The position numbers and the translations under genes were made by a program. Shown here in pieces: positions 1,644 to 7,877 of a stretch of 64,000 nucleotides of DNA. The stretch is taken from positions 3,654,763-3,718,762 of the forward strand of contig OZ244172.1 of the NCBI GenBank assembly GCA_965216545.1, written 5' to 3'. Under the pieces are notes generated by a model, which had not been told where the DNA came from, did not search any database, and saw only the letters and a list, made by a program, of their open reading frames with translations. The stretch's first letter is position 1; each line of letters starts with the position of its first letter. Source of the DNA: Bryobacterales bacterium. Its GTDB lineage: Bacteria > Acidobacteriota > Terriglobia > Bryobacterales > UBA6623.

Positions 1644-2333
1644 ATGGCCGCCTCCGCCAAGCTTCAACAGCTCGAGACTTTGCTCCGCCAGCGCGGGCTT
1701 GGGCGTGCTTTGCCGACGGCGGACAAGCCTGTGTACAAGCCGCTGCCGACCGGCAGAGCGGAGGTCGACCGCCGTCTGGGCGGCGGGTTGCCGCGCGGGG
1801 CGATCAGCGAAGTTGTTGGCCCGGAGTCGTCGGGGCGGACGTCATTGTTGTTCTCGGCGCTAGCCCGGGCGACGCAAGCGGGTGAGGTGGCGGCTTACAT
1901 TGACGCGACCGATTGTTTGGATCCGCGCTCGGCGGAGCAGGCTGGCATCGTGCTGGAGCGGTTGCTGTGGGTGCGCTGCGACTCGCGGGAGAGGCCGCGC
2001 TACGAGCGCCTGCGCGAGCAGCCGGCGGATCAGGCTTGGCAGGCGGTGAACCTAGTCGCGGCGGCGGGCGGCTTCGGGCTGATCGTAGCAGACTTGGGCG
2101 GGCTCTCCCGCCGCAAGCTCGGCGAATGGCAGCGCCGGCCGTGGGTGCGGCTCAGGCAAGCGATCGAGCATACCGCGACCGCGCTGACGGTGCTGGCGGA
2201 GCGGCACGTGGCGCAGGGCGCGGCCACGTTCGGCCTAGGAGGGACAAGGGACGGTTTGGGGACAAGGGACAGGGGTTTGGGGACAAGGGACCGGGGACAA
2301 GGGATAAGAGGACGGTTGTTGGAGGTGGCCTGA
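1644..2333 (+). CDS. imuA: ImuA, RecA-like protein of the imuA-imuB-dnaE2 mutagenesis cassette
   Basis: Degenerate RecA Walker-A-like motif GPESSGRTSLL and synteny with imuB and dnaE2. The C-terminal ~30 aa (GTRDGLGTRDRGLGTRDRGQG...) are encoded by the heptamer array, so the native C-terminus may have been altered. Confidence 0.8.
   Translation: MAASAKLQQLETLLRQRGLGRALPTADKPVYKPLPTGRAEVDRRLGGGLPRGAISEVVGPESSGRTSLLFSALARATQAGEVAAYIDATDCLDPRSAEQAGIVLERLLWVRCDSRERPRYERLREQPADQAWQAVNLVAAAGGFGLIVADLGGLSRRKLGEWQRRPWVRLRQAIEHTATALTVLAERHVAQGAATFGLGGTRDGLGTRDRGLGTRDRGQGIRGRLLEVA
2241..2307 (+). repeat. G-rich heptanucleotide tandem array L1 (GGGACAA family)
   Basis: Seven phased units at 2259-2307: GGGACAA GGGACAG GGGTTTG GGGACAA GGGACCG GGGACAA GGGATAA. 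Two further units lie at 2241-2254 and a stray GACAAGGGA at 2342-2350. The array sits in the imuA 3' end. Confidence 0.9.
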
Positions 2334-2783: not shown

Positions 2784-4296
2784 AGAGGGACCCTTGCCGC
2801 TCTTTGCAGCTTTGTATGTCGCTGACTTCGCTGTTGCAGCGTTGATCCGCGGCGAAGCGTACAGCCCCGCTACCGGGGTGATCGAGGGCGAGCCGCCCAA
2901 TCAGTTCGTCTGTACGGCCGATGAGGCGGCCCGCGCCGGCGGCGTACAGATCGGCATGCCGCTGGCCGCGGCCACCGCACGTTTCGCCTATGTCACTCGG
3001 GGCGAGGATCTGCGCATCCTCGAGCGCGACCCGGCGGCCGAAGCCCGCGCGCAGCGTGACTTATTGCGAGCAGCCGAAAACGCCACCCCACGCTATGAGG
3101 ATTCCGCGCTGGGGCTGGCGACGCTCGACTTCAGCGGATTGCGTGAGCCGCATGTGGCGGCGCGCAAACTTTATACAGAGGCGGAGGCGCTGGGGTTCAC
3201 GCCTCAGCTTGGGGTTTCGCGCAACCGCTTCGTCGCATTATGCGCCGCGCGCACACAGCCAGGATTGACGCATGTCTACCCCGGAGAAGAGGCAGGCTTT
3301 CTCTCGGTCCAGGGGCTCGACGTGCTGCCAATGGAAGCAGCCGAGATCGAAACGCTCGCACGCTGGGGCGTCCGCACGGTCGGCGAGCTGGCGCGCTTCA
3401 GCGAGAACGACCTGACAGCGCGCTTCGGCGAACGCGGCGCGCGGTTGGCGCGACTGGCGCGTGGCGAAGAAGCGTCGGTGATTGAGGCCTACACCGCGCC
3501 GCTCGAGCTCGAGGAGCGCCAGGAGTTCGACTGGGAAGTCGGAGAGCTCGAGCCGTTGGCGTTTGCGCTCTCGGGGATGCTCGAGCGGCTGTGCTTGAAG
3601 CTGCAGGGTCACAACTTGGCGGCGGCGCGCGTGGAGACCAAGCTCGAGCTTGCGAGCGGGCGGTTGTTCGCTCGCAAGATCGATTTGCCGTATCCGCTGA
3701 CCGACCCGCGCACGCTGCTCAGACTGGTGCGGCTCGATCTCGATGCGCATCCCCCAGGCGACGCCATCGTGGCCGCCCGCGTCGCCGCCGCGCCCACCGA
3801 GCGGCGTCGCGTGCAGTTCTCGCTCTTCGCGCCTGCCGCGCCGAGCCCGGAGAAGCTGGCTGTGACGCTGGCGCGCCTCTCGGGCCTGGTGGGCGCCGAG
3901 CGCGTGGGCGCTCCGGTCGCGCCGGACACGCACAAGCCGGGAGCGGCGGCGTTGGCGCTGTTCGCACCATCGCAAAGGGACAAGGGACAAGGGACAAAGG
4001 GACAAGGGACAGGGGACAAGAGAGGCGGCTCGCGTGAAGAACGCATCTTCCGCGTCTTCCGTCCGCCCTGGCGCGCCAAGGTCGAGACCCAAGCGCACGA
4101 GCCGGCGCATCTGGAGTCGCTCGATGTCGCCGGCCCCATCGAATCCAGCTCCGGCCCCTGGCGTGTTTCCGGCGAGTGGTGGAGCCCGGAGGGCTGGCAA
4201 TACGAGGAATGGGATGTGCTGGTGCAGGGGCGTATGTATCGGGCTTGCTTTGATCGGTTGAGCCGGGAGTGGTTTGTCACGGGGGCGTACGATTAG
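2755..4296 (+). CDS. imuB: ImuB, Y-family-polymerase-like protein
   Basis: N-terminus LFAALYVADFAVAALIR, typical size, and position between imuA and dnaE2. The TTG start at 2755 lies inside the repeat (GGAGG at 2740-2744). An alternative TTG at 2794 would give MPLFAALYV. Confidence 0.8.
   Translation: MSLVPGPLSPEGPLPLFAALYVADFAVAALIRGEAYSPATGVIEGEPPNQFVCTADEAARAGGVQIGMPLAAATARFAYVTRGEDLRILERDPAAEARAQRDLLRAAENATPRYEDSALGLATLDFSGLREPHVAARKLYTEAEALGFTPQLGVSRNRFVALCAARTQPGLTHVYPGEEAGFLSVQGLDVLPMEAAEIETLARWGVRTVGELARFSENDLTARFGERGARLARLARGEEASVIEAYTAPLELEERQEFDWEVGELEPLAFALSGMLERLCLKLQGHNLAAARVETKLELASGRLFARKIDLPYPLTDPRTLLRLVRLDLDAHPPGDAIVAARVAAAPTERRRVQFSLFAPAAPSPEKLAVTLARLSGLVGAERVGAPVAPDTHKPGAAALALFAPSQRDKGQGTKGQGTGDKRGGSREERIFRVFRPPWRAKVETQAHEPAHLESLDVAGPIESSSGPWRVSGEWWSPEGWQYEEWDVLVQGRMYRACFDRLSREWFVTGAYD
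3977..4019 (+). repeat. GGGACAA heptamer array inside imuB (third copy of family 1)
   Basis: Six GGGACAA-type heptamers in tandem (five GGGACAA, one GGGACAG, with one extra A after the third unit), translated in frame as QRDKGQGTKGQGTGDKRG. Positions 3977-3992 are the exact complement of 2753-2768. Confidence 0.9.
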
Positions 4297-4298
4297 CG

Positions 4299-4347
4299 GG
4301 TGCTGGGGGCTAGGTGTTAGGTGCTAGGTGCTAGGTGCTAGGTGCTG
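4299..4347 (+). repeat. G-rich heptanucleotide tandem array L2 (GGTGCTA family)
   Basis: Seven phased units: GGTGCTG GGGGCTA GGTGTTA GGTGCTA GGTGCTA GGTGCTA GGTGCTG. The array starts 3 nt after the imuB stop. Confidence 0.9.
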
Positions 4348-4373
4348 GGCGTTGGCTGATACGGAGGATTGAA

Positions 4374-4724
4374 ATGATTCGGAGTTATCGCGATCTTCAT
4401 GTTTGGCAGCGGGGGATGGATCTTGTTCTTTGCTGCTACGGCTTAGCCAAGAAGCTTCCAAGCGATGAGCTTTACGGATTGACGAGTCAGATTCGCAGAG
4501 CCGCCGTTGCTATACCTGCCAACATCGCCGAGGGGCACGGCAGAGACCACATCGGCGACTACCTGCGCCATCTCTCGATCGCCTCTGGATCGCTCACAGA
4601 GCTGGAAACCCACATCCTGATCACCGAAAGACTCTCGGCTATCTCTCTGAAGCCGACACTTCGATCTTTCATACCCAAGCCACTGAGCTGGGCCGCATGC
4701 TCTCCACTCTGTCAAAGAAGTTGA
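4374..4724 (+). CDS. four-helix-bundle protein, IVS/Avd family, copy 2 (C-terminus disrupted by an apparent +2 frameshift)
   Basis: MIRSYRDLHVWQRGMDLV...QIRRAAVAIPANIAEGHGR...GSLTELETH, with GGAGGA at 4363-4368. After ...ITERL (4634) the family-like sequence GYLSEADTSIFHTQATELGRMLSTLSKKLKARR continues in another frame, 4637-4756. Confidence 0.8.
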   Translation: MIRSYRDLHVWQRGMDLVLCCYGLAKKLPSDELYGLTSQIRRAAVAIPANIAEGHGRDHIGDYLRHLSIASGSLTELETHILITERLSAISLKPTLRSFIPKPLSWAACSPLCQRS

Positions 4725-4746
4725 AGGCCCGAAGAACCTCTTCCCC

Positions 4747-4781
4747 CAGCACCTGACACCTAACACCCAGCACCTAGCACC
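4747..4781 (-). repeat. C-rich heptamer array R2, inverted copy of L2
   Basis: Five phased units CAGCACC TGACACC TAACACC CAGCACC TAGCACC. Positions 4766-4781 are the exact complement of 4334-4349. The array ends 6 nt before the dnaE2 ATG. Confidence 0.9.
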
Positions 4782-4787
4782 ATTTAA

Positions 4788-7700
4788 ATGACCGAAATCC
4801 ACGCAGCCTCCGGTTTCAGCTTCCTCGAAGGCGCCTCCGACCCCGAGGACCTCGTCGCCGAAGCCAAGCGCCTCGAATACGAAGCCGTCGCGCTTTGCGA
4901 TCGCGACTCCGTCTCCGGCGCGCCGCGCTTCTTCAAAGCCGCCAAGCAAGCGCGCATCAAAGCGTTGGTCGGCGCCGAAATCTCGCTCGACCAACCGGGC
5001 GTCAAAAAGGGCGTCCGCAACGCCGAGCTCGACCGCCGCCTCACCGTGCTGGTCGAGAACCGCCGCGGCTACCAGAACCTCTGTCGCCTGCTCACGCGCA
5101 TGAACCTGCGCGCCCCCAAGGGCGAAGGGCGCGTCACTTGGGACGACCTCGACGACTTCTCCTCCGGCCTCGTCGCCCTACTGCACGACCTGCGCGACGA
5201 GGACCCAGTACGCGGCATCTTCGGCTCGCGCAACGTCTACGTCGAGCTGCAACGCCACATGCGCCGCGAGCAGGAGCGCGACAACCAGGCGCGCATCGAG
5301 CTCGCTCGCCGCTACGGGCTGCCGCTGGTCGCCTCGAACGGCGTGCGCTACGCCACCGAGGCGCGCAAGCCGCTCTACGACGTCTTCACCTGCCTGCGCT
5401 ACAAGCGCAAGCTCGATACTGTCGGCCGCTTGCTCGACGCGAACGCCGAGCGCTACCTCAAGCCGCAACGGTCTCTCGAGTATCTCTTCCGCGATCTGCC
5501 CGAAGCGCTCGCCAATGCGAGTGAGCTTGGGCGCCGGCTCGACTTCACGCTCGGCAATCTCGGATACGAGTTCCCGAAGTATCCGTTGCCGCCCGGCGAG
5601 ACAAATACCTCGTTCCTGCGCAAGATCGCCCTGCGCGGCGCCGCCGAACGCTACCGCGATTCGCCACATCGCGAGAAGGCTCTGCGGCAGATCGACCACG
5701 AGCTCGCCGTCATCGAGCGACTCAACCTCGAAGGCTATTTCCTGATCGTGTGGGACATCGTCGAGTTCGCGCGCAAGAACGGCATTCTGTGCCAAGGCCG
5801 CGGCTCGGCGGCGAACTCGGCCGTATGCTACTCCTGCGGCATCACCGCCGTCGACCCGGTCGGCATGGAGCTGCTCTTCGAGAGGTTTCTCTCCGAGGAG
5901 CGCGGCGAGTGGCCCGACATCGACGTCGACTTGCCCTCGGGCGACCAGCGCGAGCAGGTGATCCAACACGTCTACCGCCGCTACGGCGAGCGTGGCGCCG
6001 GCATGACGGCCAACGTCATCACCTACCGCGGCAAGATGGCCGTGCGCGAGGCGGGCAAGGTGCTGGGCTTTCCGGAGGAGATGATTGCGCGCCTGTCGAA
6101 GTGTATCCACAGCTTCGAGTACACCGACGACAATGACAAGCTCGTCTCGCAGGCCGTCGCCGCCGGCTTCGACGCTTCGCACCCGCGCGTCGGCCACCTG
6201 TTGCGCACTTGCATGCAGATGCAGGGGCTGCCGCGGCACCTGGGCCAGCACTCGGGCGGAATGGTGATCTGCCAGGGCGATCTCGACGCCGTCGTGCCGC
6301 TCGAGAATGCGTCGATGCCCGGCCGCGTCGTCGTGCAGTGGGACAAGGAGGACTGCGCTGACCTCGGCGTCATCAAGGTCGACTTGCTCGGCCTCGGCAT
6401 GATGGCGGCGCTCGAGGAGAGCGTCGAGACCATCCGTTCGCGGGGCGGAGACTTCGACTTGGCGCGCATCCCGCCCGATGATCCCGCGACTTACCAGATG
6501 ATCCAGAAGGCGGACACGGTCGGCGTGTTCCAGATCGAGAGCCGCGCGCAAATGGCGACGCTGCCACGCATGCGGCCGGATCATTTCTACGATCTGGTCG
6601 TAGAGGTGGCCATCATCCGCCCCGGGCCGATCACGGGCAACATGGTGCACCCGTATCTGGCGCGGCGGCAGGGCAGGGAGCCGGTGACCTATCCGCACCC
6701 CTCGCTCGAGCCGGTGTTGAAGCGCACGCTCGGGGTGCCGCTGTTCCAGGAGCAGTTGTTGCGCGTGGCTATGGTGGCGGCGAACTTTACCGGCGGCGAG
6801 GCCGAAGAGCTGCGCCGGGCGATGGGCTTCAAGCGCTCGGTCGAGCGCATGGGCTCGATCGAGCGCAAGCTCCGTGAGGGCTTGGCCGAGAACGGCATCG
6901 AGGGCGAGGCGGCGGAGCAGATCGTACGCTCGATTACTTCGTTCGCACTGTATGGATTTCCGGAGTCGCACGCGGCGAGCTTCGCTTTGCTCGCCTACGC
7001 GAGCTCCTATTTGAAGTGCCACTACCCGGCGGAGTTTCTGACAGCGTTGCTCAACTGCCAGCCGATGGGCTTCTACTCGCCGGCCGTGCTCGTCAGAGAT
7101 GCGCAGCGGCACGGCGTGCGGGTGCGGCCGATCGACGTGGCGTTGTCAGGGGCTAGGTGTCAGGTGCTGGGCGCTGGGGAGATGCGGTTGGGGTTGCGGT
7201 TTGTCTCGGGGCTCAGGGCGGAGGCGGCGGAGCGCATTGTGGGGCTGCGGCCGTATCGCTCGATGGAAGACTTCGTGCGACGGACGCGCTTGGCGAAGAC
7301 GGAGCTGGACGTGCTGGCGGAGATTGGGGCGCTGAACTCGCTAGGAGAAGGCGTCCACCGGCGCGAGGCGTTGTGGCAGATCGAGAGGGCGTATCGCCCG
7401 GCGGGGCCGCTGTTCGAGTCCCAAGACGACCGGCTGCCCGAGCCGGGGCCGCTGGCCAAGATGATGCCGCTCGAGCGGCTCGACGCCGACTATCGCGGGG
7501 CGGGCCTGACGACGGGGCCGCACCCGATGCACTACCTGCGGCCGGCGCTAGCCGATCGCAACGTGCACAGCGCGCGCGACCTCGAGTCGATCGCCCACGG
7601 CCGCCGCGTGCGTGTGGCCGGCGCGGTCATCACGCGGCAGCGACCGGGCACGGCCAAGGGCTTCTGCTTCATCACGTTGGAGGATGAAACTGGAGTTTCG

Positions 7701-7877
7701 AATCTGATTCTCACCCCGGACGTGTTTCAGGAGCACCGGCTGGCCGTGCTGCAGGAGTCGTTCCTGATCGGCGAGGGGTCGCTACAGAAGGTCGACGGCA
7801 CGATCGCGGTGAAGACGGACTTCGTCGAGCCGATGGGGGCGATCGAGCTCGAGATGGAGTCGCATGATTTTCATTAG
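4788..7877 (+). CDS. dnaE2: error-prone DNA polymerase DnaE2 (Pol III alpha-like, ImuC)
   Basis: 1029 aa with an N-terminal PHP domain (HAASGFSFLEGAS) and Pol III alpha core motifs (GRGSAANSAVCY, PDIDVD, GMVI, FQIESR). Lies in synteny after imuA and imuB. Confidence 0.92.
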   Translation: MTEIHAASGFSFLEGASDPEDLVAEAKRLEYEAVALCDRDSVSGAPRFFKAAKQARIKALVGAEISLDQPGVKKGVRNAELDRRLTVLVENRRGYQNLCRLLTRMNLRAPKGEGRVTWDDLDDFSSGLVALLHDLRDEDPVRGIFGSRNVYVELQRHMRREQERDNQARIELARRYGLPLVASNGVRYATEARKPLYDVFTCLRYKRKLDTVGRLLDANAERYLKPQRSLEYLFRDLPEALANASELGRRLDFTLGNLGYEFPKYPLPPGETNTSFLRKIALRGAAERYRDSPHREKALRQIDHELAVIERLNLEGYFLIVWDIVEFARKNGILCQGRGSAANSAVCYSCGITAVDPVGMELLFERFLSEERGEWPDIDVDLPSGDQREQVIQHVYRRYGERGAGMTANVITYRGKMAVREAGKVLGFPEEMIARLSKCIHSFEYTDDNDKLVSQAVAAGFDASHPRVGHLLRTCMQMQGLPRHLGQHSGGMVICQGDLDAVVPLENASMPGRVVVQWDKEDCADLGVIKVDLLGLGMMAALEESVETIRSRGGDFDLARIPPDDPATYQMIQKADTVGVFQIESRAQMATLPRMRPDHFYDLVVEVAIIRPGPITGNMVHPYLARRQGREPVTYPHPSLEPVLKRTLGVPLFQEQLLRVAMVAANFTGGEAEELRRAMGFKRSVERMGSIERKLREGLAENGIEGEAAEQIVRSITSFALYGFPESHAASFALLAYASSYLKCHYPAEFLTALLNCQPMGFYSPAVLVRDAQRHGVRVRPIDVALSGARCQVLGAGEMRLGLRFVSGLRAEAAERIVGLRPYRSMEDFVRRTRLAKTELDVLAEIGALNSLGEGVHRREALWQIERAYRPAGPLFESQDDRLPEPGPLAKMMPLERLDADYRGAGLTTGPHPMHYLRPALADRNVHSARDLESIAHGRRVRVAGAVITRQRPGTAKGFCFITLEDETGVSNLILTPDVFQEHRLAVLQESFLIGEGSLQKVDGTIAVKTDFVEPMGAIELEMESHDFH
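7149..7176 (+). repeat. GGTGCTA-family heptamer array inside dnaE2 (third copy of family 2)
   Basis: Four phased units GGGGCTA GGTGTCA GGTGCTG GGCGCTG, translated as GARCQVLGAG. Positions 7154-7171 are the exact 18-nt complement of 4745-4762. Confidence 0.85.

Follow-up and report, generated by a model that had tools for sequence, protein, structure and literature searches.

Inverted heptamer arrays around four-helix-bundle genes at the imuA-imuB-dnaE2 junctions of a Bryobacterales bacterium: probable relatives of rRNA intervening sequences

We analyzed a 64-kb stretch of DNA from a Bryobacterales bacterium (the window; coordinates below are positions in it, unless a locus is named), with emphasis on the small, selfish-looking cassette, here called cassette 2, that separates imuB from dnaE2. 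The window starts with an operon on the + strand composed of imuA, a gene for a four-helix-bundle (4HB) protein, imuB, a second 4HB gene and dnaE2. Each 4HB gene lies between two arrays of tandem heptamers that are complementary to each other, the arms of cassettes 1 and 2. The open reading frames (ORFs) and repeats are the following.

1644-2333, + strand: imuA, RecA-like (Pfam RecA and NCBIfam ImuA matches).
2241-2313, + strand: left arm of cassette 1, a GGGACAA-type array (Tandem Repeats Finder and repeat search).
2333-2749, + strand: 4HB ORF of cassette 1, 138 aa, intact (PF05635, E=1.7e-35; TIGR02436; NF008911; PDB 2GSC, E=9.5e-23).
2753-2783, + strand: right arm of cassette 1, a TTGTCCC-type array of 31 nt, 97% complementary to the left arm (Tandem Repeats Finder and repeat search).
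2803-4296, + strand: imuB (Pfam IMS; N-terminal alignment with orthologues).
3973-4020, + strand: solo GGGACAA array of 6.4 units in the variable linker of ImuB (Tandem Repeats Finder, ImuB alignment, the syntenic locus L087, k-mer test with the element's own arms).
4299-4354, + strand: left arm of cassette 2, seven GGTGCTA-type units and one degenerate unit (Tandem Repeats Finder, direct reading, inverted-repeat search).
4363-4367, + strand: Shine-Dalgarno-like GGAGG, 6 nt 5' of the cassette 2 ATG (read from the sequence).
4374-4756, + strand: 4HB gene of cassette 2, frameshifted (three-frame translation, hidden Markov model (HMM) match of the repaired protein, alignment with L087).
4743-4781, + strand: right arm of cassette 2, five complementary units of the type …CACC (Tandem Repeats Finder, inverted-repeat search).
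4788-7877, + strand: dnaE2, error-prone DNA polymerase III alpha (Pfam PHP, DNA_pol3_alpha, finger and HHH_6).
7149-7178, + strand: solo cassette-2-type array in dnaE2, GGGGCTA GGTGTCA GGTGCTG GGCGCTG GG (phased-pattern scan; coding in L087).

The left arm of cassette 2 reads GGTGCTG, GGGGCTA, GGTGTTA, three times GGTGCTA and GGTGCTG, followed by the degenerate GGCGTTG. The right arm reads CAGCACC, TGACACC, TAACACC, CAGCACC and TAGCACC at 4747-4781. An initial annotation of this DNA had counted seven units at 4299-4347 and five complementary ones at 4747-4781, a count with which both direct reading and Tandem Repeats Finder agree (4299-4346, period 7, 6.9 copies, 87% matches, consensus GGTGCTA; 4750-4781, period 7, 4.6 copies). 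It had also described 4334-4349 and 4766-4781 as exact complements and the remainder as pairing with few mismatches. This is indeed what we find, these two segments being part of 37-nt arms (4313-4349 and 4745-4781) that are 86% complementary. The cassette fills the spacer, as that annotation had proposed: the imuB stop TAG is at 4294-4296, the first unit begins 2 nt past it at 4299, and the last unit finishes at 4781, 6 nt before the dnaE2 ATG at 4788. In the predicted RNA fold, the arms form the terminal stem of the minimum-free-energy structure (z = -5.3). The arrays of cassette 2 are real and not a chance occurrence, because, apart from the two cassettes, the whole window has no strong inverted repeats within 800 nt and because a phased pattern, GG-N5 four times followed by GG, is found 17 times against 0.57 expected, with 0/100 shuffles reaching 17. 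All 17 matches fall in five cassette-related arrays. The possibility raised by the initial annotation that such arrays are a ubiquitous intergenic filler does not hold, since in the window they are confined to this operon.

The 4HB gene of cassette 2 is read in frame 0 at 4374-4634 and in frame +2 at 4637-4753, and its stop TGA (4754-4756) lies within the right arm. An extra TC (within CTCTC) at 4635-4636 puts the last 4HB helix out of frame, and the unrepaired ORF stops at 4724. When the two frames are joined, a full 4HB protein of 126 aa is obtained, which matches PF05635 (E=1.8e-35, 121.8 bits, cut-off 33.8), TIGR02436 (118 bits, cut-off 24) and NF008911 (151.7 bits, cut-off 137). In L087 the gene is intact, and its protein product (P0121, 124 aa) is 94% identical to the repaired window protein. 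The alignment of the two places the 2-nt insertion in the window copy, where it reflects a sequencing error or else a pseudogene confined to this lineage. As a consequence of the frameshift, copy 2 would now persist as a hairpin only. The enclosed 4HB ORF announced by the initial annotation thus stands as to its family, PF05635/TIGR02436 by HMM, and has to be corrected as to its frame.

Cassette 1, in contrast to cassette 2, has kept an intact four-helix reading frame. It is preceded by the Shine-Dalgarno sequence GGAGGTG (2321-2327), and further GGGACAA-type units are found 3' of its ATG, at 2339-2352. The arms again form a terminal stem in the RNA fold (z = -3.9). The cassette 1 protein gives family HMM scores similar to those of the repaired cassette 2 protein, and the two are 63% identical. 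By these matches both ORFs are four-helix-bundle proteins of PF05635/TIGR02436/NF008911, the "23S rRNA intervening sequence protein" or S23p, and Avd-like. They are related to XCC0516 of Xanthomonas campestris (PDB 2GSC, an entry with five chains) and, to a lesser degree, to the Avd protein of diversity-generating retroelements (DGRs). PDB entries 2GSC and 2RLD contain 5 chains each. Most copies of the 4HB ORF are under strong purifying selection (ratio of nonsynonymous to synonymous divergence, dN/dS, of 0.03-0.21), and the proteins are basic, with a median isoelectric point of 9.3.

Six orthologous loci (L001-L006), from Bryobacterales and other Acidobacteriota, were retrieved via ImuB. The imuB-dnaE2 spacer is empty in L003, L004 and L006 (3-23 nt), and imuA and imuB overlap as ATGA in L002-L005, where the cassette is absent. 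L001, the ImuB of which is 81% identical, carries cassette 1 at the identical place with the identical unit, and L087 carries both cassettes at sites equivalent to those of the window. Relatives are not alike in array length (12 versus 7 left units). As shown by the alignment of these loci, insertion of the cassettes is lineage-specific and fills the intercistronic spacer. No target-site duplication was seen at the two junctions where an empty site is available for comparison. Two extra stretches of 235 and 484 nt in imuB of L006 were considered as cassettes and rejected, since the ImuB alignment identifies them as merely longer linkers.

The genes next to cassette 1 have been modified at their ends. 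At its 3' end imuA runs through the left array to a TGA stop codon (2331-2333) overlapping the 4HB ATG as TGATG. Junction comparison indicates that ImuA of the window (2229-2333), L001 and L087 lacks the ~45 C-terminal residues found in L002-L005 and has array-encoded sequence instead. The open frame of imuB reaches back to TTG 2755, within the right arm, and its start is likely TTG 2803, just past this arm. Judging from these positions, the imuA stop is supplied by cassette sequence, and the imuB start is probably cassette-supplied as well. This SOS mutagenesis operon has been invaded twice, with the ends of ImuA and ImuB remodelled by the element. Directly 5' of the imuA ATG, at ~1624-1638, lies GAACAAAAAGCGAAT (GAAC-N7-GAAT), which resembles the GTTC-N7-GTTC-type LexA box of Acidobacterium and Alphaproteobacteria. 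In L006, GGCGAACAAAA is repeated at the place equivalent to that of GAACAAAAAGCGAAT in the window.

A metagenome scan with the cassette 1 protein yielded 80 loci at 47-67% identity, and an array census was made on the 68 loci having at least 150 nt on both sides. Arrays of period 7 (or 14/21) are present on both sides of the gene in 50/68 loci, on one side in 15/68 and on none in 3/68. Upstream and downstream sequences can pair as a complementary stem in 63 loci (median 33 nt, loops of 360-630 nt), and the arm scores of 15-36, up to 107, compare with shuffle maxima of 9-13. The number of distinct heptamers in use is 37. In 50/58 loci the left unit departs by no more than one base from the right unit read in reverse complement, versus ~10% of the comparisons between loci, and the mean unit distance between arms is 0.83 within a locus versus 2.89 between loci. 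The unit also co-diverges with the protein, being the same above ~70% protein identity and unrelated at 50-60%. These comparisons show covariation of the two arms, both mutually and with the protein, and an architecture common to most homologues in four phyla or more, the units of which vary freely. They support the view that what is maintained is a hairpin with a 4HB gene, whatever its repeat sequence. The initial annotation had reached this last view from the two cassettes of the window, and had suggested checking it by looking for inverted pairs at other 4HB paralogs and for covariation of the arms. The census bears it out. The seven-unit left array with a shorter right array, which it had listed as a shared feature, is on the other hand not conserved across loci: the longer arm is the left one in 23 loci and the right one in 31, both arms having modes of ~4 units, and a rule of "long left, short right arm" was rejected.

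The arm length clusters at 4-5 units, with a mode of ~4.3. The G-rich arm is the 5' arm in 55/58 loci. Between co-directional genes, sense insertions outnumber antisense ones (27 vs 7, p=0.0008, with heuristic gene calls), and the called genes in L087-L089 agree. The upstream stop codon mostly falls within the first unit or 0-15 nt ahead of it, and the right arm is often separated by a few nt from the start of the next gene. Enrichment of the units for stop codons, which would end upstream genes in any frame, was considered and rejected, as 18/60 units contain a stop, the proportion expected by chance.

The hosts and genetic contexts are diverse. L089, from Gemmatimonadota, has the same architecture outside Acidobacteriota. 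Among Cyanobacteria, the element is found in a phage-tail-like cluster of Symploca (L088), 3' of an integrase gene (L093), and between cas6 and cas4 on plasmid pANA02 of Anabaena sp. 90 (L092, NC_019429.1, 43689-45227), where the left array of GGTGACA/GGGAACA units extends over ~270 nt. Plasmid-borne homologues are mostly from Nostoc, Calothrix and Anabaena, with heptamer arms in those checked. On a plasmid of Gemmatirosa kalamazoonensis (L094, NZ_CP007129.1, Gemmatimonadota) the units have 8 nt, GAGGGCAG / CTCCTGCC, with ~4 copies per arm, and an ORF-less hairpin lies directly 5' of the cassette. In L088, successive junctions at 3980-4437 hold perfect heptamer arrays (units AGGTATT, GAATGTA, AATTCTA and TTATTAC) resembling the short tandemly repeated repetitive (STRR) sequences.

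ORF-less hairpins and solo arrays of the same unit occur near the cassettes. The solo array in imuB is in frame and has the unit and orientation of the cassette 1 left arm, and positions 7154-7171 in dnaE2 match exactly, over 18 nt, the reverse complement of the cassette 2 right arm. Each solo array has the same unit as the nearest upstream cassette, with complementarity to the right arm of this cassette. Both are conserved in L087. In a wider comparison, 13-mers of an element's own arms were found in its own flanks in 6/63 loci versus 1.2% for foreign arms. In L089, three junctions of one macB-type ATP-binding cassette (ABC) transporter operon are filled with one heptamer family (1520-1632, 2369-2933 and 4496-4582). 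The middle one is the 4HB cassette, and the other two are hairpins without an ORF that have AGCTGCGG in common in their loops. Similar satellite arrays were observed at L071, L016, L044 and L030. In L030 a 4HB cassette is located directly 5' of recA, and nested ORF-less heptamer hairpins directly 3' of the recA stop (3193-3380). Concerning the dynamics of the element, opposite orientations are seen at one host site in three pairs (L010 vs L081, L032 vs L052, L008 vs L013), and in L014 vs L045 the flanks are 99% identical while the core is 76% identical, with a synonymous divergence (dS) of ~2.2. This indicates that the core has been replaced between L014 and L045, and that the element has been inverted in place in the other pairs.

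The family name points to the intervening sequences (IVSs) of rRNA, which have stood unexplained since 1990. An ORF-containing IVS in helix 45 of 23S rRNA was reportedly described in Leptospira by Ralph and McClelland in 1993. One of our homologues, L062 (54% identical), lies inside a 23S rRNA gene (1-530), where the alignment to the Rfam LSU model takes up again at position ~1227, and has arms of the type GGGGCGA/GAGGCGA…TCGCCCC. Its insertion site corresponds approximately to helix 45, a classical IVS site. The IVS of Coxiella burnetii is a 428-nt element in helix 45 with an S23p ORF and an inverted-repeat stem that is cut by RNase III; three tandem GACAGAT heptamers, in strain-variable number, are located 5' of the ORF (Warrier et al. 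2016, PMC4990558). Our cassettes contain an ORF of this family (S23p = PF05635). As in cassette 2 (37 nt, 86%; fold z=-5.3), terminal inverted repeats of IVSs form a long stem around the ORF, and the seven units at 4299-4347 have their counterpart in the heptamers on the 5' side of the Coxiella ORF, which is likewise prone to decay. Two differences have to be noted: cassette 2 lies between imuB and dnaE2 and not in helix 9, 25 or 45 of 23S rRNA, and excision by RNase III, which for IVSs takes place without religation, is demonstrated for Coxiella, whereas the window cassettes are known from sequence alone. The IVS literature has neither generalised arms made of heptamer arrays nor treated non-rRNA copies as the same element. 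Because a member of the group resides in 23S rRNA (L062), the Coxiella IVS carries heptamers and the ORF family is shared, we assign the window cassettes to the IVS-type elements, here within an mRNA operon.

We consider it fairly probable that cassette 2 is a decaying, and cassette 1 an intact, copy of such an ORF-bearing IVS-type element at the imuA, imuB and dnaE2 junctions. This element would consist of a G-rich array, a Shine-Dalgarno sequence, the gene of a basic, pentameric, Avd-like 4HB protein of ~120 aa and a complementary C-rich array. It is compact, without room for a promoter, and would be transcribed by read-through from the host operon. The arms may then pair in the transcript as a stem of 30-37 bp, which would loop out the element, join the upstream stop and the downstream start, and possibly serve as a substrate of RNase III, by analogy with the Coxiella rRNA IVS. 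We propose that it is this looping that allows insertion to be tolerated between cistrons and the 4HB message to be expressed or released. Given that arms mostly have 4-5 units and that homologues of solved structure are pentameric, the 4HB protein could bind its own repeat arrays and thereby help in their maintenance or spread. The arrays would change by slippage of units and be homogenised between the two arms.

Several points weigh against this scheme. Stem mismatches of the G.U and A.C types number 81 vs 90 in the 63 stems, without bias, and there is thus no positive sign of selection for pairing at the RNA level, a result that neither supports nor excludes such pairing. The imuA ORF crosses the left arm of cassette 1, and a cut by RNase III there would leave a non-stop imuA message. 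The match between 4-5 units and a pentamer is only numerical, binding of the protein to the arrays being putative, and expression and cleavage in the source organism are assumed by analogy. A strict period of 7 had to be rejected given the 8-nt units of L094. Finally, no near-identical elements were found at different sites among the sampled loci, where close cores are all at orthologous sites, so that active transposition can only be hypothetical.

A serious alternative, compatible with the IVS-type explanation and in our opinion possible without being likely, is that of a mobile element acting at the DNA level. It would resemble the repetitive extragenic palindromic (REP) sequences, their hairpin-forming doublets (REPINs) and the REP-associated tyrosine transposase (RAYT), or else an autonomous element with its MITEs (miniature transposable elements with inverted repeats). 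The arms would then act as single-stranded DNA hairpins or as recombination substrates, with RNA pairing incidental, and the 4HB protein would be the specificity factor that spreads ORF-less hairpins of the same unit. The stems without wobble bias are in line with this, as are the sharing of a unit family between ORF-less hairpins and the neighbouring cassette (with a common loop motif in the L089 pair, and a similar situation in L071 and L016) and the excess of satellite arrays near cassettes (6/63 loci vs 1.2% in the control). Xanthomonas fits as well, with ~70 ORF-less GGGAATC hairpins and XCC0516 next to the same unit. The three inverted pairs and the core replaced between nearly identical flanks in L014 vs L045 also speak in its favour, but ordinary homologous recombination can account for both inversion and replacement. 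Moreover, the 4HB protein has no signature of a nuclease, transposase or recombinase, its matches being limited to PF05635/Avd, and neither target-site duplications at the two empty-site junctions nor, in the sample, near-identical copies at non-orthologous sites were seen.

It could also be imagined that the host has domesticated the element as a regulatory module of the SOS mutagenesis operon, tuning the stoichiometry or timing of ImuA, ImuB and DnaE2. Two cassettes and two solo arrays are indeed gathered within one 6-kb operon and occur nowhere else in the 64 kb, L087 has kept the whole arrangement and L001 part of it, the cassette supplies the stop of imuA and probably the start of imuB, and the L030 element adjoins recA. 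However, the element is also found in an ABC-transporter operon, a phage-tail cluster, between cas6 and cas4, beside an integrase gene and in 23S rRNA, the orthologous operons L002-L006 do without it, and the cassette 2 ORF is frameshifted in the window, all of which makes domestication improbable. Simple-sequence repeats of incidental nature, due to polymerase slippage or present as G-quadruplex (G4)-prone microsatellites, with no functional link to the enclosed gene and pairing by chance, would agree with the variable copy number between relatives and with the G4 formed in vitro by GGG-containing units (PMC4692102), but they are effectively refuted by the complementary arrays flanking the ORF in 50/68 loci, the arm scores far above the shuffle maxima, the co-variation of the arms and the uniform polarity (55/58 loci), many units having moreover only GG and being poor G4 formers.

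Going beyond the IVS-type explanation favoured here, a broader scheme can be put forward, only tentatively. The 4HB genes with inverted arrays would be the autonomous members of one bacterial element class, very widespread and so far overlooked, and the ORF-less hairpins and solo arrays at operon junctions its non-autonomous members, uniting ORF-bearing IVSs, the Xanthomonas GGGAATC repeats and part of the STRR sequences. The pentamer would read approximately one unit per subunit (arms of 4-5 units), drive propagation or homogenisation, and seed arrays into coding sequences such as imuB and dnaE2. The 4HB/S23p family has thousands of members (3,162 and 6,635 matches below two E-value limits) and two crystal structures, and to our knowledge no function outside DGRs. 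Heptamer microsatellites (STRR, GGGAATC) have served as fingerprinting or G4 objects, and we know of no account of their origin. A single architecture, made of a G-rich array, a 4HB gene, a complementary array and ORF-less derivatives, appears to join S23p, the rRNA IVSs and these microsatellites. It would also explain annotation artefacts, such as host genes reading into arrays and 4HB genes seemingly "associated" with CRISPR-cas or other operons. The association figure of a large CRISPR survey includes '23S rRNA IVP' (PMC10910872), and a cassette such as that between cas6 and cas4 in L092 may be behind this listing.

Besides the IVSs, the heptamers of Xanthomonas are among the closest known systems. 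X. campestris contains 186 GGGAATC arrays, mostly of 4 units, located within 50 bp 3' of stop codons on the coding strand or, on the opposite strand, just 5' of starts (Rehm et al. 2015, PMC4692102). About 70 convergent pairs, 21-67 nt apart, lie between operon genes, e.g. groES-groEL and atpA-atpG, and start a few nt past stop codons; a 4-unit array is found 6 nt 3' of bccP (the table name for XCC0517) and overlaps the annotated start of XCC0516, although the authors did not link the arrays to this protein (PMC4692102). In the same study, GGG-containing units were found to form G4 in vitro, and the G-rich heptamer of Nostoc is given as GGGGA(C/T)T (PMC4692102). These repeats share with our cassettes the period of 7, the number of units (mostly 4), the proximity to stops and starts and the inverted pairs within operons, and one GGGAATC array adjoins XCC0516, which is the 2GSC 4HB protein. 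Papers on the Xanthomonas and STRR repeats view them as G-quadruplex or fingerprinting sequences without a tie to the 4HB family. The repeats differ in that most Xanthomonas copies are ORF-less, and in the units and host, the window having GGTGCTA and GGGACAA in a member of the Bryobacterales. The Xanthomonas heptamer hairpins therefore look like ORF-less relatives of the cassettes, as far as their sequences tell. The STRR sequences are likewise intergenic with a period of 7. They are known from heterocystous cyanobacteria with canonical units, whereas the host of the cassettes is an acidobacterium with other units, yet cyanobacterial 4HB genes do carry heptamer arms. The comparison with STRR made by the initial annotation was apt in this respect, given the Nostoc, Calothrix and Anabaena plasmids mentioned above.

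The REP/REPIN-RAYT systems also combine one protein gene flanked by inverted repeat copies, lineage-specific repeats, and ORF-less hairpin copies scattered between operon genes. However, RAYT is an HUH Y1 transposase (IS200/IS605-like), whereas the 4HB protein matches PF05635/Avd only, and REP sequences are single palindromes instead of tandem heptamer arrays. Mobilisation by the 4HB protein would be an extrapolation from them. The Avd protein of DGRs is a homologous, pentameric, basic four-helix bundle, and the PHROG family 'Avd protein of DGR' is matched with E=9e-15, but cassette 1 reaches only 40 bits with NCBIfam DivGenRetAVD, below the equivalog cut-off of 80 bits. No reverse transcriptase was found in the 10 larger ORFs scanned at 220-22263 of the window or among the called genes of L087 within ±6 kb, and no pair of template and variable repeats within 15 kb of the window cassettes or in L087. 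A DGR was rejected. A component of anti-phage defence was rejected as well, since PADLOC matched zero families, and so was a phage origin, a scan of viral contigs giving one 26%-identical relative without arrays.

Searches of openly accessible full texts returned no general account of 4HB genes flanked by inverted heptamer arrays. The statement of the initial annotation that it knew of no description of this layout is in so far correct, and has to be restricted in view of the Coxiella IVS (PMC4990558) and the GGGAATC pairs of Xanthomonas (PMC4692102). What was already known is the class of ORF-bearing IVSs, and heptamer arrays as such. What appears to be new is the occurrence of PF05635 genes bracketed by complementary heptamer arrays of free sequence at the junctions of mRNA operons, together with their ORF-less derivatives.

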